Origin: a virus
Lineage: Duplodnaviria > Heunggongvirae > Uroviricota > Caudoviricetes
DNA: 64,000 bases
Virus record (IMG/VR): IMGVR_UViG_3300032116_000060
Span: 39,086-103,085 of that record
Direction: 5' to 3' (one strand)
Part shown: piece after piece, positions 1,388 to 55,636 of the stretch
Numbering within the stretch: the stretch's first letter is position 1
Layout: each line of letters begins with the position of its first letter
The notes under the pieces: model-generated
Told to the model about the DNA's origin: nothing
The model's database searches: none
Seen by the model: the letters and a program-made list of their open reading frames with translations, nothing else
Made by a program: the position numbers and the translations under genes

Positions 1388-1429
1388 TATTACATAGTAA
1401 AGATAAGGGAAAGTCTTGAATTTTCCAAG
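1388..1429 (-). promoter_or_regulatory. class-B motif (coding strand: CTTGGAAAATTCAAG ... CTTTACTATGTAATA) immediately upstream of the ATG
   Basis: TATTACATAGTAAAG + CTTGAATTTTCCAAG on the plus strand. Confidence 0.45.
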
Positions 1430-1445
1430 CGTTTCCCCATTTATT

Positions 1446-1688
1446 TTACCAACACATCATATTACCTGCTCTATCCCATTCCTTAGCACTACTTTCAGTT
1501 GCTTTGTGAACGGTAGTATAATCCACCTTTAGGTTAGAGTTTCCAAACTGGCGTTTCACCTCAGCCATAAACTCTATGATGTTCTTAGCCCAAATATCAT
1601 TGAACCCACCACCTATCCAATTGAATTGGTATCGGTATTGACCTTTTGAGTTCTTTAACAATTTCTCTCTCTTAACTGATGCTCTCAT
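1446..1688 (-). CDS. hypothetical protein
   Basis: 80-aa ORF, 1-nt spacer to the upstream gene. Confidence 0.55.
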   Translation of the reverse strand: MRASVKREKLLKNSKGQYRYQFNWIGGGFNDIWAKNIIEFMAEVKRQFGNSNLKVDYTTVHKATESSAKEWDRAGNMMCW

Positions 1689-1689
1689 A

Positions 1690-2268
1690 TTAAATTAAGT
1701 TTAATGCTTTCTCAATGTTAGATTCTGAATAACCATACCCTTTGGCCTTCGCAATTGCGTTTTCCAAAGTAAGGGGACCGAACACATACTCACCGGCAAT
1801 TAACCCTTTCAAACACTTAACGGCTGATGGCCAACTCCCATGCGGAGCCTGATTACTACAATGAACATACTTAGCGTAGATGTCTAACTTAGTACCATTA
1901 TCAGTTTTACCTGGCTCACTATACTCATAGATGTCATGCATACCATCATACTTACCACCGGCTAACGAATTGGTAAACCCATTGATTGTTTTCCATTCAG
2001 TAGAATCATAATCCAAATCTGAACCATCGGAGTTACACACATTAACCGAAACTGAATTACCATTAGCGAACACCTCTGAACTAGCCCACACTAATAGGTT
2101 AGGATAGTTTTTCTTAACAAAGGCCTTACTCATCGAAGCCACTTCTTTACGACCGATAGAGATGTAAGGGGTTTCTAAAGGTTTTCCCCAATAATCGGTA
2201 GTACGAAGGCAGGTAGATGGAACTTCAAACTCCATACCTACATAACTGAATTTCAATTTGTTTTTCAT
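1690..2268 (-). CDS. hypothetical protein
   Basis: 192-aa ORF; class-B promoter motif at 2281-2323. Confidence 0.6.
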   Translation of the reverse strand: MKNKLKFSYVGMEFEVPSTCLRTTDYWGKPLETPYISIGRKEVASMSKAFVKKNYPNLLVWASSEVFANGNSVSVNVCNSDGSDLDYDSTEWKTINGFTNSLAGGKYDGMHDIYEYSEPGKTDNGTKLDIYAKYVHCSNQAPHGSWPSAVKCLKGLIAGEYVFGPLTLENAIAKAKGYGYSESNIEKALNLI

Positions 2269-2280
2269 ATCTCTCTCATT

Positions 2281-2323
2281 TATTACATAGTAAATCTACT
2301 AAAAAAGATTGAATAATCCAAGC
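2281..2323 (-). promoter_or_regulatory. class-B motif
   Basis: TATTACATAGTAAA ... TTGAATAATCCAAGC. Confidence 0.45.
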
Positions 2324-2388
2324 ATTTCCTCAATTATTTTTTGGATTTTCGTAAGTCGTTGGTAATCAATGCTGTATAGACGATATCA

Positions 2389-2400
2389 ATCTGTATATAC
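2389..2400. promoter_or_regulatory. perfect 12-bp palindrome CTGTATATACAG in a divergent intergenic region
   Basis: lies between minus-strand gene start 2268 and plus-strand ORFs starting near 2471; flanking CAGTCCC...GGGACTG inverted repeat. Confidence 0.3.
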
Positions 2401-3548: not shown

Positions 3549-4091
3549 TATGTAACACCGAATTTACATTTGTTACATACTATTTACAATTGTAACCGAA
3601 TAAAATTCTGCTCTCGTCGGCTGTGCACCGAATAATTTCTAACAAAAGGGGATAAAATATAGAAAAAATTTTGGTATAAACGCTTGGATATGTGAATTTT
3701 TTGTTGTACCTTTGCGTGCCAGGAAAAAATCGTTCTATGTATGGATGTGTATATGCCACTTCCTCCCACTTTCCCCCACTTTTTCACACCGTTCATAATA
3801 TTAAGAAATTAACATTAAAGAGTATAATACGGATGCTTTCACCCTCACCCCACCTTACTACACCACATAGTGAAAAGGTTTAGTACTTAATCGCTAATCA
3901 CTCCTTTTAAACCCCCATATCTCCATTTTGCCACCACATCTCCACACTCCCTATACCCATATACCCTATCTAATAAAATTCCTTTAATAGGGTGAATAGA
4001 AGGATTATCCCCCCTCTTAATACCAACCATATGGGGATTAGGATTATCAGCAGTTTGATTACCTCTATCCCTACTCTCTTTTTATTACTTT

Positions 4092-6230: not shown

Positions 6231-6531
6231 TTGAGTAGTTAATTATTATTTTTTCTAAAACTTTTTCAAAATCATCTACTTGCTTAAAGTGTTTTAAATC
6301 TACCATTCTCCTTACTATATTCCCATCTTCTTTCCACGCCCATACTTCATATATCAACTTTTTATCACCTATTGGCAGCCTTTCGACCTGAATTGTAAAC
6401 TTTTTGAGAGTTTTAATGTTTGATACTAAAAATTGGTATTGATTATCACCTATCAATTCATAGTTCTCAACCCACCACTCTCTTAATACAACTCTATCTA
6501 TTATAGTCTCTATATTTTGAATTAGTAGCAT
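6223..6531 (-). CDS. hypothetical protein
   Basis: 102-aa ORF, overlaps the downstream start. Confidence 0.55.
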   Translation of the reverse strand: MLLIQNIETIIDRVVLREWWVENYELIGDNQYQFLVSNIKTLKKFTIQVERLPIGDKKLIYEVWAWKEDGNIVRRMVDLKHFKQVDDFEKVLEKIIINYSNE

Positions 6532-6788
6532 TACTCACCAATCTTCAAAAGTGATTTATAATCAAAACTTCTCCAACCTTCTTTATCCAAATCCCACACC
6601 ATAATCAGGTCGGTATTTGTTGTAGTTGATTTAGCTATTGTATCCGAAGTCGTCTTTGGATGTTTTTCTTCTGGTATTACATCGAATGATTTAGTGCATC
6701 TCATTACTCTATCACTACCATCTTTTTTCTTAAAGGTTACTACCACTTCACCCTCTTTCAAACTTTCTACTAATTCTTCTTTTGTCAT
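6531..6788 (-). CDS. hypothetical protein
   Basis: 85-aa ORF. Confidence 0.55.
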   Translation of the reverse strand: MTKEELVESLKEGEVVVTFKKKDGSDRVMRCTKSFDVIPEEKHPKTTSDTIAKSTTTNTDLIMVWDLDKEGWRSFDYKSLLKIGE

Positions 6789-6792: not shown

Positions 6793-7437
6793 TTATTTCT
6801 TATAGTATTTCCAAACTTCTTCTAATTGTTTACGGTCTTTAATCACATATCGGTACTTATCACCCGCAATCCAATTTTTTACACCGGTTGCTTCATATTC
6901 AGATGTGATATAGTAATCCTTATCTTGAAAGAATGGTTCTTCTTCCCAATCAGCTGGAAGCATCTCTCTTGTTACATCAACATAAAATGTTTTTGGTTCG
7001 AATGGAAACTCTTTAATGTATTGTCTACTCCTAATCCCCTCAACAGTTCCGCTGAAGTTGTCCCAATTGTTTCCACTTTCACCGACCGTATCCCCTCTCC
7101 ATATAATTGCATCTAAATACCATACACCACTATCATCTTTAAACACAGCGGAGTTTCTTTTATTTTGATATAATATACCATCGGGATCACTTGATCCTTC
7201 AGACCATTCATCGTCTTCACCCGTTAATGGGGAAATGGTTTGAAATGTGCATAATTTATTGATTACCGATGAAATTATTGCGGAGGTATATGGGGCAGAA
7301 CCGCCACTTTGCCCACTTTGACTAAACTTTTTGCATATAGCCAGTATTTCATCTTTAAAATCTAATGCTATTGCATCAGGTACTACCTTACTCAAAATCT
7401 CAAATTCAACTTCGGCGTGTGATTTTGTATTTGTCAT
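6793..7437 (-). CDS. hypothetical protein
   Basis: 214-aa ORF. Confidence 0.6.
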   Translation of the reverse strand: MTNTKSHAEVEFEILSKVVPDAIALDFKDEILAICKKFSQSGQSGGSAPYTSAIISSVINKLCTFQTISPLTGEDDEWSEGSSDPDGILYQNKRNSAVFKDDSGVWYLDAIIWRGDTVGESGNNWDNFSGTVEGIRSRQYIKEFPFEPKTFYVDVTREMLPADWEEEPFFQDKDYYITSEYEATGVKNWIAGDKYRYVIKDRKQLEEVWKYYKK

Positions 7438-7606: not shown

Positions 7607-7924
7607 TTATTCTTCGTTTATTTCGTTTTCTATTGATTCATCACCCACTTCACCCCTTTCCTCTTCATCTTTCATCCTCAATCCATCTGCAGCAACTGCA
7701 AATCCAACAATATAACCTGCAATCCAACTATCCTTATCTAATCCACTTCCAAAATCAAAATCACCTAATGCTACATCCTTAACATTTTCAATCCAATCAA
7801 TCTTTTCTTTAATTGAATCAATCTTTGTTTGCTTTGCCCACTTACCCATACCATTTACAGGTTCTTGTGATAAGGCCTCTTGCAATTGTAATCGATAATT
7901 TTTTTCTAAATTCATATTATTCAA
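7607..7924 (-). CDS. hypothetical acidic protein
   Basis: 105-aa ORF. Confidence 0.5.
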   Translation of the reverse strand: MNNMNLEKNYRLQLQEALSQEPVNGMGKWAKQTKIDSIKEKIDWIENVKDVALGDFDFGSGLDKDSWIAGYIVGFAVAADGLRMKDEEERGEVGDESIENEINEE

Positions 7925-8147
7925 TTTTAATTTTTAATCCCATTCGTTTCAACTCACCCCTCCACTTATCCAACTCTTCAATAAATCCCTCTTTGATTAT
8001 ACACTTTCCGGTATTATGAACTATAAGAGCACATTGTTCTGCCTGATAAATGTTATACCCACACACTTCCATCAATGCCAATATAACACCATCGAAGGAG
8101 TTTACATTATCATTAAGCAAAATCAATTTTTTCTTATTCATTATCAT
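7917..8147 (-). CDS. clpS: ATP-dependent Clp protease adaptor ClpS-like protein
   Basis: 76 aa; matches the ClpS core (LILLNDNVNSFDGVILALMEVCGY..QAEQCALIVHNTGKC). Confidence 0.6.
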   Translation of the reverse strand: MIMNKKKLILLNDNVNSFDGVILALMEVCGYNIYQAEQCALIVHNTGKCIIKEGFIEELDKWRGELKRMGLKIKIE

Positions 8148-11185: not shown

Positions 11186-11204
11186 TACAAATATACGAAA
11201 AAAG
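11186..11204 (-). promoter_or_regulatory. class-A promoter box abutting the uvdE start (leaderless-type spacing)
   Basis: TACAAATATACGAAAAAAG, 3 nt from the ATG. Confidence 0.4.
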
Positions 11205-11221
11205 AATGGATTTAACAAATC

Positions 11222-12542: not shown

Positions 12543-12577
12543 TTACAAATATACGAAAAAAGGCTTGAATTACCAAG
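12543..12577 (-). promoter_or_regulatory. class-A intergenic unit: hairpin GGCTTGGTAATTCAAGCC + T6 + CGTATATTTG (Bacteroidota-type -7 TAnnTTTG) on the coding strand; doubles as the groL terminator
   Basis: read on minus strand: GGCTTGGTAATTCAAGCC TTTTTT CGTATATTTG; about 20 nt upstream of the next ATG. Confidence 0.5.
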
Positions 12578-12610
12578 CCTTTTCCCTATTATTTTACCTA
12601 TTTTTAAGGT

Positions 12611-14629: not shown

Positions 14630-14649
14630 ATACAAATATACGAAAAAAA
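14630..14649 (-). promoter_or_regulatory. class-A promoter box upstream of groES-groL
   Basis: TACAAATATACGAAAAAAA on the plus strand = TTTTTTTCGTATATTTGTA on the coding strand; a TTTG sits about 21 nt upstream. Confidence 0.45.
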
Positions 14650-14656
14650 TATGAAA

Positions 14657-15103
14657 TTACAAAGGAATATTTTCAGTATATGCTTCTAGTATCTCCTCAC
14701 CCTTTTTGATGTCTCTTAAAGCGATTCCATCATTTGAAATGTTTGTATCACCAAAGTTAGGATATGCACTATTACAAAAACAAAATGAATTGTAGAAAAA
14801 ATTCAGTCCATTAAATAATCTAACTATCTTAAACCCATCTACTCTACTAATATAATGTTTATCTATTTGGGATTGAACCTCTTCCGGCAGTTCTCTAAAT
14901 CTTTTATTTTCTATTATGTAAAGTCCCGTTGGGTGTTCCCATTGTGGAAAAACTTCTTCTCCTGCTAATATATCTCTAATAGCAAAAACACCAATTCCAT
15001 CAATAGGAGAATGGCGTATTTCAGTTTTTATATTATGTTTAAAGTGATGAAGTAATAACTCCATCTGAACCTCTCTACTTCGTTTTTCCATATTCCTTTT
15101 CAC
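14657..15103 (-). CDS. SET-domain protein (putative lysine methyltransferase)
   Basis: N-SET-like GIGVFAIRDILAGEEV and post-SET-like IALRDIKKGEEILEAY blocks; Cys-rich stretch. Confidence 0.45.
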   Translation of the reverse strand: MKRNMEKRSREVQMELLLHHFKHNIKTEIRHSPIDGIGVFAIRDILAGEEVFPQWEHPTGLYIIENKRFRELPEEVQSQIDKHYISRVDGFKIVRLFNGLNFFYNSFCFCNSAYPNFGDTNISNDGIALRDIKKGEEILEAYTENIPL

Positions 15104-16916: not shown

Positions 16917-16924
16917 ACAATATG

Positions 16925-17012
16925 CGGAGAGAGTAGGATTCGAACCCACGGAACAGTTTCCCGTTCTCTTGATTTCAAGTCAAGTGCGATAGACCAACTC
17001 TGCCATCTCTCC
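16925..17012 (-). tRNA. tRNA-Ser(TGA)
   Basis: hand-folded: 7-bp acceptor GGAGAGA, T-loop UUCGAAU, long variable arm, anticodon loop CUUGAAA. Confidence 0.6.
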
Positions 17013-17926: not shown

Positions 17927-18355
17927 TTAGATTTGAGTTGTTGCATTATGCACATCTAATTCATTTTGCAATCCCTCAATTTGAGTTTCCAATATCGAAA
18001 CCGCTGAATCAATATCGGTTACATTTAATTCTACTTCTTTTACTGAAATGATACTTCCGTATCTTTCATTTACTTTACCTTCTTCGGTTGAAACTTTCTT
18101 CAACTCCTTAATCATCCCCTTCAATTCTGCCAATGCAAAGATTTTATCATACACCGGTTGATTTGCTTTGTGGATTTTGGTTTTCAATTCTACTAACTCT
18201 GCTTGTAGAGTTTTGATTTTTTCCAAAGTATTCGCCATAGAGTATCTACGAGGATTACCTTCTTCGATTGAGTTAAACTTTTGAAGAATGCCATAAGCAA
18301 CCTTCATTTCGGTAACCAATTTGTTTTTTTGTTTTAATGCCTGTTTTACGTTCAT
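17927..18355 (-). CDS. coiled-coil protein
   Basis: 142-aa heptad-rich ORF. Confidence 0.5.
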   Translation of the reverse strand: MNVKQALKQKNKLVTEMKVAYGILQKFNSIEEGNPRRYSMANTLEKIKTLQAELVELKTKIHKANQPVYDKIFALAELKGMIKELKKVSTEEGKVNERYGSIISVKEVELNVTDIDSAVSILETQIEGLQNELDVHNATTQI

Positions 18356-18413
18356 CTTTTATGAATTTATTTTTACAAATATACCGCTATTATTTTAATT
18401 TTCCAAATTTATT

Positions 18414-19553
18414 TTAATGTGAATCACCTACATTATGTTTTTCAGCGAAAATTAAATAGTCAGGGTTGATTACCTTTGCTATCTTCTCTCTACCTTTAGA
18501 TTGATGTTTGATTACAATACCCTCCTCTGGCACTTTAGTACCTTTGATGTAATTATTGAATACATACTTATCTTGCACTTCTTGTGACCATCTACCATAG
18601 TATAATTGTTCAACATAAGGTAATTCTAAAATATGTTCGATTAATAATTTTGAATTAATTGGGTCTAAATACTCACCTTCCTCCTTTACATCGAATCCTA
18701 CGAACTCAATTTCTTTCAACCCATAATCATATCCCTTTTGGATTCCGGCTCCATAAATCTCACCGTATAAGGTAATACCATCTCCAATTATATCATAATC
18801 GGATGATTTTACATAATCCCACAACTTTTGTTTGATGTTATATTTCTTTTCGATTTCATACCAAACATTAGTATCATAGAATCCATTAGAATCTGAGCCT
18901 TTCTCTACGTTATGAGAACCCACTACGAATTCGTATTCAGCCCATTTCCATTCCGGCTTAACCTTTTTAGCCAATGAGATTTTTAATCTATCCCAAATAG
19001 TTAATTTAGCTTTCTTAACAATACCATAACGGGCATTAGTTCCGTGAATCTTACGAGTGATTTCAACTGTATCCTCTTCGGTGAACATATTAGGCACATT
19101 CTTTAAATTAGGGAATTTGTAATAGACATGGAAGTTTGGATTGTCTTGATAACGAATTTTCTTACCCCCTGCTAATTGTACCATCTTTACAGGTGGTTCA
19201 TATTTGTAAATATCCATTACCTTCATCATATCCTTACCTTCATAGTAATTTTCCATAAAAGGAATATGTTGGATTGGAATGATTAAACATTCTGAATAAA
19301 CACCTCTTAATTTAACGGTTCTAACTCTACCACCTTTTCGTAAGTAGTTAGTAACACCCATCTTTTCAGATAATTCAAATGGAACAATAGCATCGGTTGT
19401 AGCAACCATTACTAAGTCTCCTATTTTTTGCTCACCTTTTTTAGTGATACAATTCCAACCACCAACTACTGCTAATTCAATGTTATCAGCTCCTTCGATT
19501 GGGTTAATCTCATTGATTGCTGCAATGTAGCAAACTGAATTATTATTTTCCAT
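18414..19553 (-). CDS. ATP-dependent RNA ligase-like protein (N-terminal OB fold + nucleotidyltransferase domain)
   Basis: motif I-like KIHGTN, motif IV-like EGIVIK, C-terminal KxxK; OB/tRNA-binding-like N-terminus INPIEGADNIELAVVGGW. Confidence 0.55.
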   Translation of the reverse strand: MENNNSVCYIAAINEINPIEGADNIELAVVGGWNCITKKGEQKIGDLVMVATTDAIVPFELSEKMGVTNYLRKGGRVRTVKLRGVYSECLIIPIQHIPFMENYYEGKDMMKVMDIYKYEPPVKMVQLAGGKKIRYQDNPNFHVYYKFPNLKNVPNMFTEEDTVEITRKIHGTNARYGIVKKAKLTIWDRLKISLAKKVKPEWKWAEYEFVVGSHNVEKGSDSNGFYDTNVWYEIEKKYNIKQKLWDYVKSSDYDIIGDGITLYGEIYGAGIQKGYDYGLKEIEFVGFDVKEEGEYLDPINSKLLIEHILELPYVEQLYYGRWSQEVQDKYVFNNYIKGTKVPEEGIVIKHQSKGREKIAKVINPDYLIFAEKHNVGDSH

Positions 19554-19557
19554 ATCT

Positions 19558-19974
19558 TTATAATTTTACTTCAAATCGATTTTTCATTTGTTCTAACTTA
19601 TCAGTAGGAACTCCGTGCTGATTTACTCCACCATGTCTATTTTCCATAATCAAAGTGAATACCTTATACCCATACTTTTCTGCTAACTTAAAGTATTCAT
19701 CCATTTCCCACTCTTGTGTAAATGTATTTGATACTACAATTTCAGGATAGTATTGTGGTTTTGCTTCGTTATCTTTCATACGAATTTCCACTTGCTCTCT
19801 ACACCATTGATGTGCTTGCTTTATCTTACTACCATCAAAGTTGTAATTACCTTCTTTATCATAGAAGAATTTATCAGCTTCACATATTGCATAGTCATTC
19901 CATACAAAATTAGCAAATGTACTTTTACCACTTCCTGGTAATCCTCTTAATAACACTAATGTTTTTGGTATCAT
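19558..19974 (-). CDS. P-loop polynucleotide kinase-like protein
   Basis: Walker A LLRGLPGSGKST; size and position match a Pnk kinase domain. Confidence 0.6.
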   Translation of the reverse strand: MIPKTLVLLRGLPGSGKSTFANFVWNDYAICEADKFFYDKEGNYNFDGSKIKQAHQWCREQVEIRMKDNEAKPQYYPEIVVSNTFTQEWEMDEYFKLAEKYGYKVFTLIMENRHGGVNQHGVPTDKLEQMKNRFEVKL

Positions 19975-19977
19975 AAT

Positions 19978-20235
19978 TTATTTTATTAATTCAAATACAT
20001 GCCATACAAAATATCCATCCATATAGGTTGTGATATATTTCATATTATCTTCAACCTGCCACCCAGTACCTACAATACAAATATGCCTTTCTTCCGATTC
20101 GGATGTATTAGGATTTACCAAAGCCCAAAGAGTTGGCATTTGATTTTGTAATTTCACCGTTAGAAGTTCTGAACCTTTAGGTAATTGTAAAGTACAATCC
20201 TGTGAATCTAATGTGTATTTATAAATTGTTTTCAT
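19978..20235 (-). CDS. hypothetical protein
   Basis: 85-aa ORF between the phosphoesterase and kinase genes. Confidence 0.5.
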   Translation of the reverse strand: MKTIYKYTLDSQDCTLQLPKGSELLTVKLQNQMPTLWALVNPNTSESEERHICIVGTGWQVEDNMKYITTYMDGYFVWHVFELIK

Positions 20236-20240
20236 AATTT

Positions 20241-20894
20241 TTATTTATAATTTTCTACAATCTCGTGATGGTCAAAATTGAATATAGATTTGACCGGCCT
20301 GTTCTCCATTATCCTCAATACTTCTTGCATTTGAATAGGATATAACATATTACCATCACAGCCAACATCCATCATCTTACCCACTTGCAATCTCAAATTA
20401 GGATTGAAATGAACATGCCCATGCAAATGAATTGCCCCTCTTGCCATATTGTTCCAACTGGCAATTGGGAAGTGCATTAATACAAAGTTTTGTTCACCCA
20501 TTAGAGGAGTTCCAACATTCCACTTCACATTTAATTCAACATATTTGTTTACCGAATTAAATAATGTTTGACAATTATCTCTATTGTTTTCAATATGATG
20601 GTCGTGATTACCTGTAATGATATGAATGTTATTACATACAATTTGTTCTCTAAACTTTTGTATTTGTTCAAATCCACCAAAACTCCAATCGCCCAAATGG
20701 ATTAATATATCATCTTGTCTTACAACTTCATTAATGTTCCCAACTAAATGTGAATTCATATGTTCTAATGTTTTGAATTCCCTTAAAGTTACCGGGTCTT
20801 TCCATTTTGTTGTTGCACTACATATATTAGCGTGGTTATAATGGGTATCACTTGTAAACCATAATCTTTGCCCTTTATTTAATGCTATTCTCAT
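20241..20894 (-). CDS. calcineurin-like metallophosphoesterase
   Basis: motifs DTHYNH, GDWSFGG, GNHDHH, HGHVH. Confidence 0.75.
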   Translation of the reverse strand: MRIALNKGQRLWFTSDTHYNHANICSATTKWKDPVTLREFKTLEHMNSHLVGNINEVVRQDDILIHLGDWSFGGFEQIQKFREQIVCNNIHIITGNHDHHIENNRDNCQTLFNSVNKYVELNVKWNVGTPLMGEQNFVLMHFPIASWNNMARGAIHLHGHVHFNPNLRLQVGKMMDVGCDGNMLYPIQMQEVLRIMENRPVKSIFNFDHHEIVENYK

Positions 20895-21484
20895 TTTAAA
20901 AAGTTTAGTATCTTTTCTTTAATTCCAGTTTGTTTAATACCTTCGGTGCTACGCGGTGTTTCTACAAAGTTATCCAACCCCCATTCATGCTCATATGGAA
21001 CTGAATAATCCATTCCACTCTTCCCCATTCTCAAATCATCAACTGAAACCCAATGTGTAATTTCAGGATGATCGTTTAGGTATTGTTTAATTTCAATAGT
21101 TCTAGTTTGTTCCAATTCCCAAGCTCTACTCCAAATGAATCCCGCTGGATAAGCATCAATATACCAAGTACAATTACCCAAATTAGGAGTAAAGGCAATC
21201 GGTTTCTTTTTGATTCCCTTTGATTCATAATACTCACCCATCTCCTCAACATTTGCCCATCTTTTCCAATCAGATGATATAACAATTTCAGCATCAGTTT
21301 CTTCTAAAATTTCATTTAGTATCTTAACCGCTTTCTTGTTAAAATTATCAAACCGCATTTCAACGGGCATCTCTTTAATACCCTGGCTCATCTTACGGCC
21401 AAACTCTCTTTGTTTTTTATGCCTACTACCCCATTCAGTTGATAAACATATCACACCATCGTGGTCTAAAAAAATTACTTTCAT
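20891..21484 (-). CDS. HAD-superfamily phosphatase-like protein (DxDGV motif)
   Basis: N-terminal VIFLDHDGVI (HAD motif I), SSDW and DD motifs; resembles the T4 Pnkp 3'-phosphatase / 5'(3')-nucleotidase fold. Confidence 0.5.
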   Translation of the reverse strand: MKVIFLDHDGVICLSTEWGSRHKKQREFGRKMSQGIKEMPVEMRFDNFNKKAVKILNEILEETDAEIVISSDWKRWANVEEMGEYYESKGIKKKPIAFTPNLGNCTWYIDAYPAGFIWSRAWELEQTRTIEIKQYLNDHPEITHWVSVDDLRMGKSGMDYSVPYEHEWGLDNFVETPRSTEGIKQTGIKEKILNFLK

Positions 21485-22352: not shown

Positions 22353-22394
22353 TATTACATAATAAAGATAGTAAAAATTGTTGAATTTTCCAAG
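22353..22394 (-). promoter_or_regulatory. class-B motif
   Basis: TATTACATAATAAAGATAGTAAA ... TTGAATTTTCCAAG. Confidence 0.45.
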
Positions 22395-22441
22395 AAAAAG
22401 GGAGAAAATAAGCCATTGGAAATCAATCGTTTATAAAAATG

Positions 22442-22512
22442 TTACCCGAGCTGGATTCGAACCAACCCTAAATGCACCAAAAACATTTGTGCTACCGCTA
22501 CACCATCGGGCA
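22442..22512 (-). tRNA. tRNA-Gln(TTG)
   Basis: hand-folded cloverleaf; T-loop UUCGAAU; anticodon loop UUUUGGU; CCA not encoded. Confidence 0.55.
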
Positions 22513-22647
22513 ATAATCTCAAGCATTCTACTCCCCGCAGTACGGAATTGTATCTTACTTAGCCCATCGTTAGCGGTATGGGTACTTGAGTTTCTGTGAA
22601 CGAAAAACATCTATTTTTCTTCTGGCCTATCCACAATGGCCCACTTG

Positions 22648-22719
22648 AGCGGATGATAGGAATCGAACCTACGTCTCCAACTTGGAAGGATGGAGTAATA
22701 ACCATTATACGACATCCGC
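22648..22719 (-). tRNA. tRNA-Gly(TCC)
   Basis: acceptor GCGGAUG/CAUCCGC, T-loop UUCGAUU, anticodon loop CUUCCAA. Confidence 0.55.
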
Positions 22720-22730
22720 TTTTGTTTGTT

Positions 22731-22807
22731 TGGTGGGCCAGATAGGAATCGAACCTATTACCTCCGCATTATGAGTGCGTTGCTCTAACCGAATGAGCTA
22801 CAAGCCC
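22731..22807 (-). tRNA. tRNA with CAT anticodon (Met or Ile2), CCA encoded
   Basis: acceptor GGGCUUG, D arm GCUC-AUUCGGUUA-GAGC, anticodon loop CUCAUAA, T arm AUAGG-UUCGAUU-CCUAU, encoded CCA. Confidence 0.55.
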
Positions 22808-22865
22808 TAACATCGTTTAATCTGATGATAAAATGAATTATCTTTTCTTTCAACGATAAATAAAG

Positions 22866-22986
22866 GTGCCGGTGAAAGGATTGGTTACCTATACGATGTC
22901 CATTTCGGATACACCCCCTATCTAGAATTCAGGACGTCTAATGGTTTCTATTCGAATTCAAACCCATTCATTCCGCCACACCGGCA
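22866..22986. ncRNA. structured tRNA-like element of unclear nature
   Basis: perfect 7-bp terminal helix gccggtg...caccggc enclosing about 107 nt containing ttcgaat and palindromic gaattcgaattc; no canonical cloverleaf found. Confidence 0.2.
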
Positions 22987-22993
22987 TATATCT

Positions 22994-23185
22994 TTAATCA
23001 ATATCTTCTACTTCAGTTATAGTGAAATCCTCACCACCTGATGTTTCCTTTTGCCAGAAATCACCATTATCTTCAATCTCACCACTCTCTACCAATTCAA
23101 TTGCATCATCTTCGGTTTCTGCTTCAACGGTGTAAGTAACATACTCATCGATTGTTCTTACGCCTGTAATTGTAAATCTTTTCAT
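22994..23185 (-). CDS. small acidic protein
   Basis: 63-aa ORF, Glu/Asp-rich. Confidence 0.45.
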   Translation of the reverse strand: MKRFTITGVRTIDEYVTYTVEAETEDDAIELVESGEIEDNGDFWQKETSGGEDFTITEVEDID

Positions 23186-23197
23186 ATTGTTTTATTT

Positions 23198-23274
23198 TGG
23201 TGGAGAATACAGGAGTCGAACCTGTGGCCTTTTGAATGCAAATCAAACGCTCTAGCCAACTGAGCTAATCCCCC
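23198..23274 (-). tRNA. tRNA-Ala(TGC)
   Basis: 5' GGGGGAUUAGCUCAGUUGG; G3:U70; anticodon loop UUUGCAU; CCA encoded. Confidence 0.65.
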
Positions 23275-24192: not shown

Positions 24193-24193
24193 A

Positions 24194-36610: not shown

Positions 36611-36626
36611 TCAAATATACGAAAAA
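36611..36626 (-). promoter_or_regulatory. class-A promoter box
   Basis: CAAATATACGAAAAAT. Confidence 0.4.
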
Positions 36627-36635
36627 TATTTGATT

Positions 36636-36896
36636 TTACCAAAACTTTTTATTAACTCCTAACTTACCCTCTTTCGCCAATTCTAATGTTGATTTAGTTT
36701 TTTCCAACTTAGCTTCCTTTTGCCTCTTTTGGAAAGCCTTTTCATAGTGAGGGGGGAATTTATTTTCTACCGAAATAGGCCCATTTGGAAACTTATCTAA
36801 ATCGTATTTCCATATTGATTCTACCCCATCATCATCTTTATAGATATGCTGAAACTTACGAGGTTTTTCAGTTGATTTTTCAGGCCATCTACTCAT
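36636..36896 (-). CDS. hypothetical protein
   Basis: 86-aa ORF; class-A promoter 20 nt upstream. Confidence 0.5.
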   Translation of the reverse strand: MSRWPEKSTEKPRKFQHIYKDDDGVESIWKYDLDKFPNGPISVENKFPPHYEKAFQKRQKEAKLEKTKSTLELAKEGKLGVNKKFW

Positions 36897-36914: not shown

Positions 36915-36950
36915 TTACAAATATACGAAAAAAAAGTGTAAATTCCAAAT
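36915..36950 (-). promoter_or_regulatory. class-A promoter box
   Basis: TTACAAATATACGAAAAAAAA...AATTCCAAAT. Confidence 0.4.
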
Positions 36951-37086
36951 AAAAAACCCCTATATAATTAAGGGGTTGATTATTAAGTTTTCTTTTTAAA
37001 GATTCCTTTTCTTTGTTGTTCTCTACGGGTCTTTTTAGCAATCCTTTTACGATTTGCATTTACCTTTTGTCTTTTTGTTTGTGCCA

Positions 37087-37959
37087 TTATTTTAATTTTT
37101 CATATAAATACTCAGCATATTTTTTATTACCAAAATAACCTAAATGGGCATCATAAACTGGCGTTTCATCCAATATTCTCCACTTTTTCTTTTCTGCTAA
37201 ATTCCATATGGTAGGTAAATTAATTACATTTTCATTTGTGGAATCAAATAGTTTTAGTTTTTTAATTAGCTCAGCCGTATTGTTTCTATCCCCAAAATTA
37301 ATAGAACTTGCAAAAATAGTTTCATTTGGGTCTCTAATGTATGAGATTTTTAATTTATCTAAAAATGAATAAAACATTGTTAATTGTCTTAATAATCTTT
37401 TCGTCTCTACATCATAATCAATATAGAAATCAACAATCTTATTTAGTAATTCATCATTCTCTTTTAGTTCCTCAAATGTTATGGTTGAATGTAGGCTAGA
37501 AAAATCTCTACTGAATGATACTTTTGAAAACCAGGAATCATGCCAATCTCTACTAATTTCAATTTCATCATATTGATTTACATCACTACCTCCTTTGTAA
37601 GAAATGGAAACGGCAAAATAATCGCTATGTTTTCGGGAATAGACCTCAAATCTGGCAGGTTGTAATGGTATATCAAATATGAAAAGGATTTTAGATAGCT
37701 CTTCTAATGTTTTAGTGCTGATGAAATCATATGTTTTTCTTATCAATCTATCTAACCCACCACCCTCTTTTGCTTCGTTAATAACTTCTAAATTCATCAT
37801 CGAACCTAATATGTTTCCATAGGATAGTTCTTTTTGAGTAGCCCAATTTTCTATATCTAATTCAGTTGTATAATACCTCCACGCTGCCGATTGGTATCCC
37901 AATGCCCCTCCACAGCTTAGACTACTTCCATTAATATATAATTGAGTGTATTTATTCAT
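37087..37959 (-). CDS. SGNH-hydrolase-like protein with variant block I (GSS instead of GDS)
   Basis: N-terminal YINGSSLSCGG and C-terminal DAHLGYFG (DxxH block V-like). Confidence 0.4.
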   Translation of the reverse strand: MNKYTQLYINGSSLSCGGALGYQSAAWRYYTTELDIENWATQKELSYGNILGSMMNLEVINEAKEGGGLDRLIRKTYDFISTKTLEELSKILFIFDIPLQPARFEVYSRKHSDYFAVSISYKGGSDVNQYDEIEISRDWHDSWFSKVSFSRDFSSLHSTITFEELKENDELLNKIVDFYIDYDVETKRLLRQLTMFYSFLDKLKISYIRDPNETIFASSINFGDRNNTAELIKKLKLFDSTNENVINLPTIWNLAEKKKWRILDETPVYDAHLGYFGNKKYAEYLYEKLK

Positions 37960-38282
37960 TACAAAGAGAATGATTCACCACATCCACAGGTTCTACTTGC
38001 ATTTGGATTCTTAAATTCAAATCCTTTTCCATTTAATCCATCAGAAAAATCTAATTCAGTTCCAAACAAATACATAAACGATTTACCATCTACTAAAATT
38101 TTTACATCTTTATCCTCAAACTGCATATCCGATGGTTTAACATCATCATCAAACGAAAGGTCATATGATAATCCACTACATCCACCACCTTTTACAGCAA
38201 CTCTTAAATAAGGTGTCGTATTACCACTTTCTTCAATAAGTGATTTAACTTTTTTAGAAGCGTTTTCTGTAACCGTAATCAT
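37959..38282 (-). CDS. iscA: A-type iron-sulfur cluster carrier (IscA/ErpA family)
   Basis: 107 aa; conserved Cys triad (GGGCSG ... CGCGESF). Confidence 0.8.
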   Translation of the reverse strand: MITVTENASKKVKSLIEESGNTTPYLRVAVKGGGCSGLSYDLSFDDDVKPSDMQFEDKDVKILVDGKSFMYLFGTELDFSDGLNGKGFEFKNPNASRTCGCGESFSL

Positions 38283-38680
38283 TATTCAAAATTTAATTGT
38301 TCTAATCCTTGTTTAACTCTATAATCATTTATCGCAGATTTAATTGCATCCTCCGCCAAAACACTGCAATGGATTTTTACAGGTGGTAAGGCCAATTCTT
38401 CAACTAAATCCATATTATCAATTGTAAGTGCCTCATCAATTGATTTACCTTTTAACCATTCGGTGGCTAATGATGAAGCTGCAATCGCCGAACCACATCC
38501 AAAAGTTTTAAACTTAGCATCAGTTATTACACCATCATTTACTTCAATCTGCAATCTCATTACATCACCACATTCCGGTGCTCCAACCAATCCCGTTCCA
38601 ACATTTGATTTACTCTTATCTAACGTTCCTACATTCTTTGGGTTTTCATAGTGCCCAAGCACTTTTTGACTATACGCCAT
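38282..38680 (-). CDS. iscU: Fe-S cluster assembly scaffold IscU
   Basis: 132 aa; GAPECGD, GCGSAIASS, LPPVK, HCS motifs. Confidence 0.85.
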   Translation of the reverse strand: MAYSQKVLGHYENPKNVGTLDKSKSNVGTGLVGAPECGDVMRLQIEVNDGVITDAKFKTFGCGSAIAASSLATEWLKGKSIDEALTIDNMDLVEELALPPVKIHCSVLAEDAIKSAINDYRVKQGLEQLNFE

Positions 38681-39617: not shown

Positions 39618-40094
39618 TTATTCTCCTTTCATTATTTTATACCTTCTTACTCTCTCTTCTTCGGTAAGGAATTCAGTATATGTATGTTCGATTTTTGCCT
39701 TTATACAAGTTTCTGGCAATCTTTGATTTCTCAAATAATTGTTTACATATCCTAATATATTGTGAGTTCCAATTGGATTAGCAGAATGAACATAAATTTG
39801 TGGTAATGGTATGCCTCTAGTAATGCTTTCCGCCACTAAAAATCGTGCACAATCCATACCTGTCTTTTCTTCAATCCTTTTGTAATCCAATTCGTAGTTT
39901 GGTTTTACATTAGTATAGTATTCCTGCATAGCACCTTCACCTAAATCATGATCTAGGGAAATAACTTCATAATTCTCTAAACCATTTAGACGAATATGAG
40001 CAACGAACTCATCATAATTCCTAACCACTTCCCAACTCAATTCAGTTGGTATCCTTACATCATCTAGATAAAGATATATTTTTTCTTTTTTCAT
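39618..40094 (-). CDS. hypothetical protein
   Basis: 158-aa ORF; first gene of a tightly overlapped six-gene operon. Confidence 0.5.
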   Translation of the reverse strand: MKKEKIYLYLDDVRIPTELSWEVVRNYDEFVAHIRLNGLENYEVISLDHDLGEGAMQEYYTNVKPNYELDYKRIEEKTGMDCARFLVAESITRGIPLPQIYVHSANPIGTHNILGYVNNYLRNQRLPETCIKAKIEHTYTEFLTEEERVRRYKIMKGE

Positions 40095-40558: not shown

Positions 40559-40599
40559 CAAATATACAAAATAATTATGAATTTTCCAAATTTATTTTT
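40559..40599 (-). promoter_or_regulatory. class-A-like promoter box
   Basis: CAAATATACAAAAT...GAATTTTCCAAAT. Confidence 0.35.
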
Positions 40600-45349: not shown

Positions 45350-46588
45350 TTATAAAAATTTATGTAAATGTTTTGGTATCGGTAGGTTATTGTAAAGTGA
45401 AGACCAATTTAAGTAATTTTTTAGATTTGTTAAGTGTTCTTCTTTATCACCCTCTATCCCTTGTTTAATATGTAATAAGTAATTTTTTATATCTCCCAAT
45501 AAATAAGGATTCTTTTCAACTCCTTTTATTTCAGTTCTACTAAAATACTCTTCTATTTCAGCTTCTAATCCAAAGTTTTTAGCATCTAAATGTTTCGGCC
45601 AACTTACTATTTGTAATCTAATGTTAGAATAATCTGCTATATACCCATTATCAATTAGGTAATCATAGGTTTCAAAAAATTGAAATACATTTAATAAAGT
45701 TGCGGTAAAGGTAAAATCATAGCTAATGTTAGGATTATTCTTTACCTCTTCGTTTAATTTTTTTAGATTAGATAAGAAGTTTTGTGTTTTAAAATTAGTT
45801 CTTTGAAATTCCCCCGTCTCAAACAATCCATCTAATGATATAGAATAAACTACATTTTTAAATCCTTTTGTGAATTCAAAAATAGAAGTATCTTTGTATT
45901 CTAATATAGAAAAGTTTGTTTGAAATTGTAGTGTCACATTTTTAGGATGTGGTATAATTTCTATGAAATCCCATACTTTTCTTGTGTACAATGGTTCTCC
46001 TCCTGCTAAATAAACATATTCCAAATGCTCTAATTCTTCTTTATTAAAATCATTTTTAAGAATGTGAAGTTTCTTTTTATTAAATGGAGCAATGTGTTCA
46101 TATACTCTGTGGTCTAATTTCCATTGTTTAAGTTTTTCTCTCACAGGATCTACAACTTCCTTTTCCCAATACTCAGCTCTTTCATCATACCAACTTGTAG
46201 AATCCCTCTCTCCACACATTCGGCATTTAAAATTACATTGATTAGAAAATCTTACATCTAAAAATACCAATTCGTTTTTATCAGATTCACCTTTTATAAG
46301 TTTATCATATTGTTTTTGAAAATGTGTATTCTTTTCTTGCCTAAAACTTCTCCCACCTCTTTCTTCGGTTTTCCAACAGGCATCACATATCTTATTCTTT
46401 ATTCCACTTTTTAAATCCTCTCTTAATTTTTCATAAGATTCGTTTTTATAAAATTGTTCAAAATCAACATAATCATTAAAGTTCTCTTCAAAGAAATCAC
46501 TTGCCATACAACACGGCTTTACCTTTCCATCCTGAAAAACGGAAAAGTGCATAAACGGCATCACACAAAATGTTTCTTTATTATACAT
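45350..46588 (-). CDS. radical SAM domain protein
   Basis: CNFKCRMCG (CX3CX2C) plus additional Cys clusters. Confidence 0.65.
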   Translation of the reverse strand: MYNKETFCVMPFMHFSVFQDGKVKPCCMASDFFEENFNDYVDFEQFYKNESYEKLREDLKSGIKNKICDACWKTEERGGRSFRQEKNTHFQKQYDKLIKGESDKNELVFLDVRFSNQCNFKCRMCGERDSTSWYDERAEYWEKEVVDPVREKLKQWKLDHRVYEHIAPFNKKKLHILKNDFNKEELEHLEYVYLAGGEPLYTRKVWDFIEIIPHPKNVTLQFQTNFSILEYKDTSIFEFTKGFKNVVYSISLDGLFETGEFQRTNFKTQNFLSNLKKLNEEVKNNPNISYDFTFTATLLNVFQFFETYDYLIDNGYIADYSNIRLQIVSWPKHLDAKNFGLEAEIEEYFSRTEIKGVEKNPYLLGDIKNYLLHIKQGIEGDKEEHLTNLKNYLNWSSLYNNLPIPKHLHKFL

Positions 46589-51366: not shown

Positions 51367-51400
51367 TAAATATACGAAAAAAATGGCAATTTACCAAATA
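51367..51400 (-). promoter_or_regulatory. class-A promoter box
   Basis: TAAATATACGAAAAAAA...TTTACCAAAT. Confidence 0.4.
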
Positions 51401-51458
51401 AAAAAGGGGGTATTTCTACCCCCCTAAAAACCTCCATTTGAGAGTTAGAGTTATGAAA

Positions 51459-53021: not shown

Positions 53022-53026
53022 TGTTA

Positions 53027-53689
53027 TTAATTTAAAAATGAATTTAAAGTTTGTTTATAAAGTTTACTAAATTTTGTTATTTCTTTTTTATTTGTTTTTT
53101 TACTGAATGAAGTGGTTTCCCAATTAGTCATTAGGTATGCCTGAATTTCATCATCCATAACTTCTAATGTATAACCATAATCAACCAAATTGGTTACAAA
53201 TTGATTATATAATTTTGTAGGTATCATTTGCGTTATTTCATCTGCTAATTCTTTATATAAAGGATTAGTTGAATAAAGACCATGACAAACTTCATGCTTA
53301 AATGTTTCTCCTACTAAATCTCCTGCCCCAATGATATACCCATCACAACTATAATCATTCATTTCATATACCTTTTGAACTATCTCCTCCATTATATTAT
53401 CATATGGTGTGTATGGTTCGGTAAGAGTATCATAGCAGGTGTATGCAATTTCTAATGGTATATTGAACCCACCCCAATCAAATGCGTATGTAAAGGCATC
53501 GCTGTGATTTCTACTATACCATTCAATATAATCCCACATATCGAAACTCTTTCCCTTAAATTGCGGATTAGGTGATTCATAGTATTCCTGCACTCTACAA
53601 AATAGCATTGGCCTATGATAATCATCTGGCACAATTACCGCGAATAGTTTGGGTTTTACTTCTATTATTTTATAATCTATTAGTATCAT
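53027..53689 (-). CDS. hypothetical protein with HExxH motif (HEVCH)
   Basis: 220-aa ORF. Confidence 0.45.
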   Translation of the reverse strand: MILIDYKIIEVKPKLFAVIVPDDYHRPMLFCRVQEYYESPNPQFKGKSFDMWDYIEWYSRNHSDAFTYAFDWGGFNIPLEIAYTCYDTLTEPYTPYDNIMEEIVQKVYEMNDYSCDGYIIGAGDLVGETFKHEVCHGLYSTNPLYKELADEITQMIPTKLYNQFVTNLVDYGYTLEVMDDEIQAYLMTNWETTSFSKKTNKKEITKFSKLYKQTLNSFLN

Positions 53690-53690
53690 T

Positions 53691-54290
53691 TTAAATGTTT
53701 TCGGTTTGGAATATTTTTTCCAATTTAGGAGTTAGTGAGTCGTATTTCATATTAAACTTACTACTCATTGCGTTTACCAAATTTTTATTCTTATATGGAG
53801 AATTTTTAGGTTTACTCCACCTTCTAGTTATCAACATCCAATTGTAAAACTGAACATAAGCATTTGCCTTTTTTACATAATGTTCTAAATCAACCTTCAA
53901 TCCAAATTTCTTAATTATCTTTACTGCCCTTTTTTCATTATCCAATTCCAAATCTCTCGCAACCCCAATATGCTTTTGGATACTTCTGCAATTTTTACCA
54001 TCTAACCACTCCCACACTTTCCCTAATGAAACTTCTGCCTTTTTCCATATCGGAACTTGTTCTACCCATTGTGTTAGATGCCCATATTCATGTGCAAGTA
54101 TTTCAATCCAATCGGGTCTATTTGTAGCAACAACTAATTCCGGTACTTCTTCATCAAACCAACCACTACATTTTACATTTCCATCCATTATAACATACTT
54201 TGAAGGTCGGAGCGAACATTTTACATTATGTTTTTTACACTCATCTTTTACAAACTGAATAAATTGTAATTCCTTTTTAGTTTTAATCAT
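53691..54290 (-). CDS. putative zinc metallopeptidase (HEYGH motif)
   Basis: 199 aa; ILAHEYGHLTQW. Confidence 0.5.
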   Translation of the reverse strand: MIKTKKELQFIQFVKDECKKHNVKCSLRPSKYVIMDGNVKCSGWFDEEVPELVVATNRPDWIEILAHEYGHLTQWVEQVPIWKKAEVSLGKVWEWLDGKNCRSIQKHIGVARDLELDNEKRAVKIIKKFGLKVDLEHYVKKANAYVQFYNWMLITRRWSKPKNSPYKNKNLVNAMSSKFNMKYDSLTPKLEKIFQTENI

Positions 54291-54348
54291 AGGTTGGGTT
54301 TATAAGAAAAGAGGGGATTACTCCCCCCAATTCCCGAGTTATGAAAAA

Positions 54349-55590
54349 TTACCACACAATAGTTTCTTCATTTTCTACCTTCTCATCTTTCATTTCATTG
54401 AAAAGATTTTGGTCAGTTGTTTTGATGTATTTCTGAACCAACTGCTTCACATAAGTTCTCTCACTTTCCAATCCTCCATCATTAGAGAAGAAAGGTAAGA
54501 TAGCAACCTCTGCGGCCTCCATAAGGGAGAATCCATCGTAAAGTAATCCTGCCATTTCTACCGATGCTCTCGTTGAAACCATATTACTCAACTTAGCAAC
54601 CTCTGAACGGCTCACCTCTCTTGTGTTGTGAGCAATCTCACCAATCGCTTTAAGGTCATCATCACTCACCTCAGGATACATCTTTTTAAGTAGTGTGAAT
54701 TCTTCTTCACTATTCAACACATCCATTTCAATTGTAACAAAACGGTCTAAGATAGCTCTATCCAATACCCTAGTCGCGGTGTATTCATTACCGATGTTTG
54801 CGGTAGCGATGAAAGTAACACCTTCTGCCACCTTTACAATCGGTGAACCCTCTGCCTCATCCAAACGAAGGTATCGTTGGTTTTGGTCTAATACTGTCAT
54901 CAAAATGTTCCAAGCATCAGGGTGAGCTCTACTTAACTCATCCAAAAGGATAATTGCGTTAGGAGTTTTAATTGCCTTAACGAAAGCCGATTCAGAGAAG
55001 TAAGTTCCTGTCTCTTTATTGAATTGGGTATTACCAACCAAAGTTGCTCGCGGGTCTTGCGTTGAACCTAAGTTGAAGTAAAAATCAGGTCGTTGTAATT
55101 GGGTAACTAAGAATTTAGCCGCCATAGTTTTACCACAACCCGCCGGCCCTGTCATCATAATGTTCTTACCTCTAACGGCAGAACGAATAAGGTATTTCCA
55201 TTTTATATCCTTGATAATTAGATTATCAGGTTTTAATTTGATTGAATCCTCGTGGATAATACGAAGTAATTCAGAGTGCTCACTTGTGGCCTCAATGTTC
55301 ACCTCACCATTTTCTTTTAATGGTTTAACAAGCATATTGTATTCGGCCATCTCAACCATTCTAAAAGAATTACTACCCTTTGAATTTACATAGCCTCTAA
55401 TTGCTTTACCATTTTCACCTGCTTCACGTCTCATTACCGAGCCAACAAATGTATTGGAGTATTCACCTTCGGTATTTACCAAAAGGTATCGATTTCCAAC
55501 TTTTTCGATTTTGTAGATTTCATTAGTGAAACCTGCCTCATAAACTTTTTGTGATTTTTTCATAACTCTATTTTTGTTTTTAACTCTCAA
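54349..55590 (-). CDS. cobS: MoxR-family AAA+ ATPase, CobS-like
   Basis: Walker A MMTGPAGCGKT and Walker B ILLDELS. The track start is a TTG at 55588-55590; an ATG lies at 55561-55563. Confidence 0.75.
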   Translation of the reverse strand: MRVKNKNRVMKKSQKVYEAGFTNEIYKIEKVGNRYLLVNTEGEYSNTFVGSVMRREAGENGKAIRGYVNSKGSNSFRMVEMAEYNMLVKPLKENGEVNIEATSEHSELLRIIHEDSIKLKPDNLIIKDIKWKYLIRSAVRGKNIMMTGPAGCGKTMAAKFLVTQLQRPDFYFNLGSTQDPRATLVGNTQFNKETGTYFSESAFVKAIKTPNAIILLDELSRAHPDAWNILMTVLDQNQRYLRLDEAEGSPIVKVAEGVTFIATANIGNEYTATRVLDRAILDRFVTIEMDVLNSEEEFTLLKKMYPEVSDDDLKAIGEIAHNTREVSRSEVAKLSNMVSTRASVEMAGLLYDGFSLMEAAEVAILPFFSNDGGLESERTYVKQLVQKYIKTTDQNLFNEMKDEKVENEETIVW

Positions 55591-55593
55591 ACT

Positions 55594-55636
55594 GATTACA
55601 TAGTAAAACTACGAAATAATTCTGAATTTTCCAAGC
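55594..55636 (-). promoter_or_regulatory. class-B motif upstream of the cobS-like gene
   Basis: GATTACATAGTAAAAC ... TGAATTTTCCAAGC. Confidence 0.45.

Follow-up and report, generated by a model that had tools for sequence, protein, structure and literature searches.

In a 64,000-nucleotide stretch of DNA from a virus of the Caudoviricetes (positions 39,086 to 103,085 of the IMG/VR record IMGVR_UViG_3300032116_000060; hereafter, the window), two short motifs recur between genes, and the question that they raise is what they are and which machinery reads them. An initial annotation had separated a host-like family (here, class A), with a TAnnTTTG box, from a phage-specific family (here, class B), with the box TATGTAAT, and had coupled each to a CTTGGAA/TTCCAAG element. 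From the motifs, their geometry and conservation, their restriction to phages, and the portability of class B, we propose, at a probability of roughly 60%, that all sites belong to one Bacteroidota-type two-element promoter family, TTG(G)-N20-TAnnTTT(G/A), of which class B is a portable cassette.

Both motif families were strongly enriched. With up to two mismatches, the class A 13-mer CGTATATTTGTAA had 15 matches against 4.3 expected, and 12 of the 15 lay on the minus strand, which is the coding strand and carries almost all window genes; the class A composite TTG-N20-TAnnTTTG had 14 matches against 1.94 expected, and none of 100 shuffled sequences scored as high in either test. Class B gave 7 matches against 0.51 expected for the 15-mer CTTTACTATGTAATA (up to two mismatches) and 7 against 0.01 for the composite TTG-N20-TAnnTTTA-N-TATGTAA (up to one mismatch), and in all four motif tests shuffled sequence never equalled the observed count. 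E. coli-type sigma-70 -35/-10 sites were not enriched (80 versus 86, 87 versus 88, and 109 versus 114). All sites were intergenic and oriented toward the downstream gene. The class B matches were the six minus-strand sites already noted plus a plus-strand site at 2644-2684; this site and a second plus-strand site at 3684-3714 are newly added, and both serve a small divergent gene block. The initial annotation's picture of two repeated intergenic families, with at least 12 class A and at least 6 class B sites, is borne out by the enrichment and the shuffles.

The two families share a single geometry. The distance from CTTGGAA to the TAnnTTT(G/A) box was always 17 nt in both classes, the class A box being TATATTTG. 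Across 45 unique contexts drawn from the window and 56 external loci, CTTGG started exactly 33 nt before TATGTAAT every time, so the reported coupling of CTTGGAA to both motifs is exact; TAnnTTTA stood between the two in 44 of these contexts, in a search that did not presuppose the box. When spacers of 17 to 23 nt between TTG and TA were tested, N20 alone was enriched, for the G box (38 matches against a background of ~15) and the A box (99 against ~25) alike. With an N17 spacer, the class B composite occurred in 55 stretches across IMG/VR; spacers of N16 and N18 gave no occurrence. Weight matrices built solely from external loci recovered every window site, plus the intermediate sites described below. 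TTG-N20-TA is also the spacing of the classical -35/-10 promoter (TTGACA-N17-TATAAT). Because CTTGGAA lies at this canonical distance in both classes, its sequence context identifies it as a -33 promoter element and not as a separate operator. The Bacteroidota sigma-A consensus is TTTG/TAnnTTTG (-33/-7), with T-12, A-11, T-8, T-7, T-6, and G-5 nearly invariant in the -7 box, a start site 4 to 5 nt past that box, and a -33 element described as weak (PMC6847099). The earlier assignment of class A to this consensus fits, with 14 window sites matching, and a sigma-A-type holoenzyme would contact both the -33 and the -7 elements in both classes.

Conservation of class A is limited to about -36 to -5, and its flanks are unrelated in the window alignment and in information profiles. 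Its consensus is (T/C)TTGGAA, an A/T-rich spacer, and TTTTCG-TATATTTG; the phage-typical TTTTCG is conserved at -18 to -13, immediately before TATATTTG, which gives the extended motif TTGGAA-N11-TTTTCGTATATTTG, and the -7 box avoids G at -10 and -9. Class A would thus be a compact promoter matching the host consensus. Class B is conserved over ~110 nt, with a mean identity of 64% over 120 nt among the 7 window copies. Its blocks follow the order A/T-rich upstream block, gCTTGGAAA (-33), a spacer of fixed length and variable sequence, TAnnTTTA (-7), Y-TATGTAAT, and leader. The -7-like boxes (TATCTTTA, TACCTTTA, TAGTTTTA, or TAGATTTA) are followed by a single pyrimidine and then by TATGTAAT, and they sit exactly where class A has TAnnTTTG, with A replacing G at -5. 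A was present at -5 in 44 of 45 class B sites, and class B agrees with the host box at the other five of its six -7 positions.

If host geometry applies, TATGTAAT would run from about -3 to +5, and the G of TATG would be +1. Changes are tolerated at positions -3 to -1 (TTTG, AAG, and ACTG occur) but not in the G-TAA-T core, and TATGTAAT, that core in particular, is invariant across ~15 phage groups. The leader that follows is A/G-rich, ~19 nt long (most often 17 to 22 nt), and ends in ..GAGAGAnATG. The upstream block has two main versions, one with AAAATAATT (ATTGAttTTCAAT..TTTTnAAAATAATT) and one with TTTAAC-N5-TTTAAC. At about -45 to -65 (window, L009-L048), the window and the two largest groups carry TTTTnAAAATAATT with a preceding ATTGAttTTCAAT hairpin remnant, and other class B groups carry the TTTAAC direct repeat, with its 11-bp period. 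Either version may be a UP-like element or an activator site. The initial annotation had placed class B boxes 4 to 17 nt before the ATG; the figure derives partly from mis-called first ATGs, as at the gene called from 33379, whose orthologue shows that the second ATG is the true start. It had also taken TATGTAAT for a -10-like core giving leaderless or near-leaderless transcripts. TATGTAAT instead overlaps the predicted start, and leaders of 17 to 22 nt by host geometry make such transcripts unlikely for class B. A start-stop mini-open reading frame (AUG-UAA) within TATGTAAT found no support either: with the triplets freed, viral scans returned TTG (3) and TAG (1), and also AAG and TTA, and the predicted +1 would place the AUG outside the transcript.

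The class B sites of the window stand mostly before small open reading frames (ORFs). Those on the minus strand are at 1389-1429 (core CTTGGAA-N17-TATCTTTA-C-TATGTAAT; cassette ~1358-1478), before a 69-aa ORFan; at 2282-2322 (CTTGGAT...TAGATTTA-C-TATGTAAT), before a 192-aa ORFan; at 22354-22394, before a 208-aa ORFan; at 32610-32650, before a 119-aa ORFan, where the orthologous site in the related locus L091 reads TTAAGTAAT; at 33385-33425, where the 5' arm of a perfect hairpin contains the -33 CTTGGAA; and at 55595-55635 (TAGTTTTA-C-TATGTAAT), 36 nt of leader before a 404-aa MoxR/CobS-like AAA ATPase. The plus-strand site at 2644-2684, divergent from 2282-2322, is a hybrid, TATGTTTG-T-TATGTAAT, with G at -5. 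Apart from the CobS-like ATPase, the class B genes of the window are ORFans without a Pfam or PHROG match.

Intermediate sites connect the two classes. At 366-396 (minus strand), a class A-type upstream half, TTTTTCG, is joined to a TATCTTTA box with A at -5, and no TATGTAAT follows; at 51367-51397 (minus), TTTTTCG-TATATTTA, again with A at -5, is followed by ACCTATAAT and likewise has no TATGTAAT. The class B variant at 1116-1146 (minus), CTTGG-N18-TATCTTTA and then CGAAGTAAAT, retains GTAA and has lost TATG. Because these three sites and the hybrid at 2644-2684 exist, class A and class B are best read, from sequence, as the ends of one family. Moreover, since A-5 occurs without TATGTAAT (366-396 and 51367-51397) and TATGTAAT occurs with G-5 (2644-2684), the two features are separable. 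Just past the left end of the window (L094:12354-12500), another A-5 promoter (TTGGAATTC...TACCTTTA) precedes a GC-rich, ORF-free stretch (TAGGGCGGTAGGGCGGGAGCAGCC...) that may be another noncoding RNA.

The initial annotation had described the CTTGGAA/TTCCAAG element as often a perfect hairpin with a T-run, forming compact terminator-promoter units, and had raised the idea that the palindrome CTTGGAA(A/T)nTTCCAAG, if a dimeric phage factor binds it, would be a new operator. Strong hairpins were present at 5 of 24 window sites, 3 overlapping the -33 element and 2 just upstream of it, all on the minus strand. An intrinsic-terminator-like hairpin at 12555-12586 (14 pairs, dG ~-16.8) follows groEL and overlaps the -33 element of the next promoter; a terminator-like hairpin at 33404-33432 (AAAAAGACTTGGAAtTTCCAAGTCTTTTT; 13 pairs, dG ~-14.7) also overlaps the -33 element, as does the hairpin at 382-411 at the intermediate site 366-396. 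A terminator-like hairpin at 36957-36974 (CCCTT..AGGGG plus T-run) lies just upstream of a -33 element and separate from it, and just upstream of the intermediate promoter at 51367-51397 there is another terminator hairpin, at 51404-51425. The hairpins at 12555-12586 and 33404-33432 were thus correctly seen, but with two class A or class B sites "often" does not stand, and terminator-promoter units exist in a few places and not at most sites.

The perfect palindrome at 33404-33432 and the partial TTGGA..TCCAA dyads common in class B are what the operator idea has in its favor. Among nonredundant sites, however, the left half, CTTGG, carried 1.4 to 1.8 bits per position and the TTCCAAG half only ~0 to 0.8 bit, and whole cassette subgroups have unrelated sequence in place of the right half (e.g., CTTGGAAATATGGGG or CTTGGAAAAGTCCCC). 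Hairpin centers in related loci fall at about -32, -53, and -74 while CTTGG stays fixed at -33; the stems around CTTGG differ (GGGGACTT..AAGTCCCC, GGCTTG..CAAGCC, and GACTTGGAA..TTCCAAGTC); and some relatives have, at -87 to -61, a strong hairpin that survives in other copies only as the remnant ATTGAttTTCAAT. Class A, in addition, has the same TTGG at the canonical -33 distance with no palindrome. Asymmetric conservation and shifting centers do not fit a dimer-binding palindrome, and we give the operator almost no credence. They do fit packed terminators: the hairpins would be terminators of upstream genes, packed around or beside a fixed -33 element.

Class B is restricted to phages. Bacterial and archaeal genomes totaling 596 Gb held a single match to its composite, within a 2-kb contig from a metagenome-assembled genome, against the 55 viral stretches, in agreement with the earlier view of class B as a separate, phage-specific family. 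In GenBank phages (cultured or annotated), the cassette was not found, with chance-level BLAST matches only. The carrier loci form one gene-sharing network of ~15 groups of near-identical loci and contain class A sites too. This single network implies that the cassette belongs to a single phage lineage, and class B, as far as these sequences tell, is confined to one lineage of uncultured large phages. Within that lineage it is not tied to one gene. The ORFs downstream of class B at all loci (n = 48; median, ~90 aa) fall into 34 unrelated clusters, which indicates that the cassette is portable and not merely inherited with one gene. About 8 promoters lie within ~3.5 kb at and just past the left edge of the window, where they open a run of ~25 tiny ORFs.

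Signs of shuffling came from a comparison with L091, a relative ~75 to 80% identical in DNA and the sole genome compared in this way. The 79-aa ORF beside the cassette at 33385-33425 is absent from L091, and the gene at 31466-31813 has moved there to the far side of the second cassette; between cassettes, cross-matches run at 75 to 84% over 95 to 121 nt. From this one pairwise comparison, made without statistics, class B cassettes appear to lie at synteny breaks. We suggest that class B resembles the promoter early stem-loop (PeSL) cassettes of T4-type phages because it stands before unrelated ORFans, in ORFan-rich regions, and apparently at synteny breakpoints. It would then be a strengthened promoter-plus-leader cassette, placed before many unrelated small ORFans; host RNA polymerase with sigma-A would read both classes, and the extra class B blocks would tune strength or timing.

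Several points weigh against this proposal. G at -5 is nearly invariant in hosts, yet 44 of 45 class B sites have A there, which suggests that host sigma-A alone may read class B poorly, and nothing in the published host consensus corresponds to the strongly conserved TATGTAAT. The single gene-sharing network is possibly the mark of a factor particular to the phage lineage, with which it is compatible. In contrast to classical PeSLs, a convincing stem-loop is missing from most cassettes; the case for shuffling is one pairwise comparison; and the +1 position and the polymerase are both inferred. A tentative alternative, to which we give more weight than to any other, is that class B is a lineage-specific promoter class at which a phage factor reads the A at -5 and the G-TAA-T/TATG block at the start site, redirects host polymerase, and keeps -33 recognition, the cassette being a recombination substrate as well. 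Close to it stands the initial annotation's own view with the geometry corrected, in which class A is early and read by host polymerase while class B is a middle or late class needing a phage specificity factor (sigma-like, a co-activator, or an appropriator). The A at -5, the invariance of TATGTAAT across ~15 phage groups in contrast to a freely variable spacer, the near absence of the motif from bacterial genomes, the confinement of all carriers to one lineage, and the precedent of middle-mode cassettes (promoter middle stem-loop [PmSL]) in T4-like phages all speak for such a factor. But the scanned window proteins include no sigma, polymerase, or DNA-binding domain; A-5 and TATGTAAT come apart at 366-396, at 51367-51397, and in the hybrid at 2644-2684; small ORFans with their own promoters typify early host-takeover genes and not late ones; and a lysin, receptor, and beta-helix region nearby carries neither class. 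On balance, we consider a middle or late class of this kind a real possibility, though the less likely one.

Other explanations place the weight on TATGTAAT itself. The box and its flanks form an imperfect 16-bp dyad (TTTAYTAT / GTAATAAA), which could be a start-site operator through which a phage regulator represses or autoregulates a regulon of host-polymerase promoters. Such a role would account for a conserved block exactly on the predicted +1, for flanks that are partly symmetric in the consensus, and for a regulon-like spread over many unrelated genes; however, the dyad center is imperfect (T|G), pseudo-dyads are common in A/T-rich DNA, conservation is asymmetric (-3 to -1 variable, G-TAA-T fixed), and no candidate DNA-binding protein was found among the scanned window proteins, which leaves the idea improbable. 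TATGTAAT might also be the -10-like element of a different polymerase, as is the T4 late box TATAAATA, with a start 6 to 9 nt downstream and leaderless or near-leaderless mRNAs. The T4 late box (gp55/gp33/gp45) is centered at -10 and needs no -35 element. Closeness to start codons would agree with this, as would the example of phiKZ, in which the non-virion RNA polymerase recognizes late promoters made up of the minimal T-3 A T G+1, all four bases being required (PMC7598289), so that short promoters centered on the start site are known in large phages. A start 6 to 9 nt past the box would nevertheless give leaders of ~3 to 11 nt at most sites, neither leaderless nor normal, and the distance from box to ATG varies from ~13 to >30 nt. 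The strict co-conservation of -33 and -7, with 0 matches at a spacer of +/-1, would be left unexplained; the late promoters of T4 and phiKZ are without conserved upstream elements, and no phage polymerase gene was found among the scanned window proteins. We regard a -10-like role as highly improbable. A phiKZ-like TATG promoter in particular was rejected, given the conserved -33/-7 boxes and the genuine class B variants that read TTTG or TAAG.

Class A sites precede a tRNA-Leu, the GOLLD RNA and further ORF-free transcripts, the groES-groEL pair, uvdE, and several small genes. On the minus strand, the core TTG-N20-TATATTTG at 11188-11218 has its predicted +1 at 11183, the A of the uvdE ATG; that at 24623-24653 has its predicted +1 at 24618, with an ATG at 24616; and that at 40559-40589 has its predicted +1 at 40554, with an ATG at 40553. 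With +1 at most 2 nt from the ATG, these three genes (uvdE, 11183; 24616; 40553) are predicted to be leaderless or near-leaderless. The core at 12546-12576 has its -33 CTTGG inside the 5' arm of a terminator hairpin, and a site with an N19 spacer at 14633-14662 lies ~95 nt upstream of groES-groEL. Further minus-strand cores are at 18376-18406, upstream of a 142-aa ORF (17927-18355); at 23382-23412 (TACATTTG), directly upstream of the tRNA-Leu at 23286-23370, where it heads part of the tRNA array; at 36612-36642, a composite match; and at 36918-36948, which the terminator hairpin at 36957-36974 precedes. The plus-strand class A-type core at 3684-3714 (TACCTTTG) serves the small plus-strand gene block.

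A separate cluster of four tandem class A promoters adjoins the GOLLD RNA, which sits between them and a large tRNA array. GOLLD (RF02032) gave a full-length match at 27483-27893 on the minus strand (303 bits, model positions 1 to 416) and probably extends to about 28381; the class A core at 28386-28416 (minus) lies ~490 nt before the match and is the probable promoter of a ~900-nt GOLLD transcript, and the ORFs called there (27668-27913 and 27426-27629) are probably spurious calls. The three other tandem promoters (28420-28890, minus) each precede a short ORF-free stretch: the core at 28486-28516 heads a short ORF-free transcript, that at 28632-28662 one of ~100 nt, and that at 28858-28888 a tRNA-like RNA at 28758-28828, itself a weak match (31.3 bits). 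The other two stretches are candidate small RNAs of ~60 to 100 nt that belong to no Rfam family.

The window is A/T-rich (GC, ~33%) and belongs to a larger genome, as implied by one carrying contig in the 0.2- to 1-Mb class. Profile scans showed its proteins to be nonstructural in type, and no structural or replication core genes are present in the window. Among the scanned proteins of this part of a larger genome there was no sigma factor, polymerase, transcription factor, or DNA-binding domain, nor were there split beta/beta' polymerase genes. The 23 tRNA genes, at 16924-17012 and 22441-26868 (minus), cover nearly all amino acids and are interspersed with small ORFs; an RNaseH_like (PF04308) protein is encoded within the array (24661-25116, minus). 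A row of RNA-repair-like genes (18414-21484, minus) encodes an RNA ligase with a PHA02142 OB-fold, an AAA_33 kinase-like protein, a metallophosphatase, and HAD_SAK_2; since this set adjoins the tRNA array, it suggests a counter to tRNA-cleaving host systems. The other products include GroES, GroEL, UvdE, a flavodoxin-like protein, the MoxR/CobS-like AAA ATPase, a VWA protein, an IMPDH/GMP-reductase-family protein, a dUTPase, sugar-modifying enzymes, numerous ORFans, and a Tad3-like protein of the Type I Thoeris inhibitor family (E = 3e-26), whose neighbors have WYL_2 and ClpS family matches in the precomputed contig annotation (loci 6793-7437, 6531-6788, and 7917-8147, minus). Further cargo at 14657-15091, 39618-40094, 37959-38680, and 45350-46588 (minus) comprises a weak SET-domain match, a cREC_REC domain protein, a radical-SAM/SPASM protein, and IscU-like and IscA-like proteins, the last two recognized by eye. 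A 476-aa protein (60173-61603, minus) has a signal-peptide-like N terminus, low-complexity Ser/Ala runs, and then Lys/Glu/Ser/Thr; its sole Pfam match, CDC27, is subthreshold (22.4 bits against a cutoff of 24.5) and probably compositional.

The same phage is recorded in many metagenome assemblies, and no near relative was found among GenBank phages. The closest GenBank relative of one window protein is in an unannotated 484-kb phage, LR756508.1 (36% identity), which is without both motifs. Just past the right end of the window (L057:2719-9945) are a GH19 lysin with PG_binding_1, a beta-helix protein, and an 825-aa SusC-like TonB-dependent receptor (CarboxypepD_reg, Plug, and OMP_b-brl_3 domains). 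Neither class A nor class B promoters occur in this 10-kb region, and nothing obvious as a third (late) motif was seen in its few intergenic gaps. The SusC-like receptor and the lysin, together with the promoter type, point to a Bacteroidota host.

To our knowledge, crAss-like phages apart, transcription control has hardly been studied in Bacteroidota phages, and the phages considered here are uncultured. For each of two promoter types the analysis supplies a precise consensus, confirmed by cross-validation on independent loci, with which transcription units can be annotated in large metagenomic phages of a widespread lineage. The compact strong parts (UP-like block, -33, -7, and leader) are candidate expression tools for Flavobacteria and Bacteroides, and the idea of the mobile promoter cassette (PeSL) may extend beyond T4-type phages of Proteobacteria. 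If a phage factor is required, the invariant start-site block is a direct handle for finding it, and class B, if dependent on that factor, would be the first defined middle- or late-type promoter of Bacteroidota phages.

Compared with known systems, the phage sites share with Bacteroidota sigma-A promoters both elements, the TTG-N20-TA spacing, and the orientation toward genes. Class A has the invariant -7 positions, and class B departs from them at -5. The phage -33 element, (C/T)TTGGAA, is much stronger and longer than that of the hosts; class A adds TTTTCG at -18 to -13, and class B adds the start-site block, the upstream block, and a conserved leader. The T4 late TATAAATA box and TATGTAAT are both A/T-rich phage-specific 8-mers, but TATGTAAT lies downstream of a box at the canonical -7 position and is tied to a fixed -33 element. 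With phiKZ late promoters, class B has in common TATG over the predicted start, G at +1, and a large phage; it differs in its strict -33/-7 boxes, as phiKZ late promoters are without upstream elements, and the likeness is a lead at most. PeSL and PmSL each combine promoter and terminator in one cassette and bring about modular shuffling in T4-type phages (PMC2839356, PMC4122927). The likeness to class B lies in short repeated intergenic cassettes with a host-type promoter, in ORFan-rich regions and before unrelated small genes, apparently tied to insertions, deletions, and rearrangements among relatives and sometimes bearing a terminator stem-loop. In contrast to PeSLs, the promoter here is of the Bacteroidota -33/-7 type, the stem-loop is present in a minority of copies, class B continues across the start site and the 5' leader, and the evidence for recombination between cassettes is a single comparison. 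The system is built on two known kinds of element, the -33/-7 promoter of Bacteroidota and phage regulatory cassettes like PeSL, in a form that is new.

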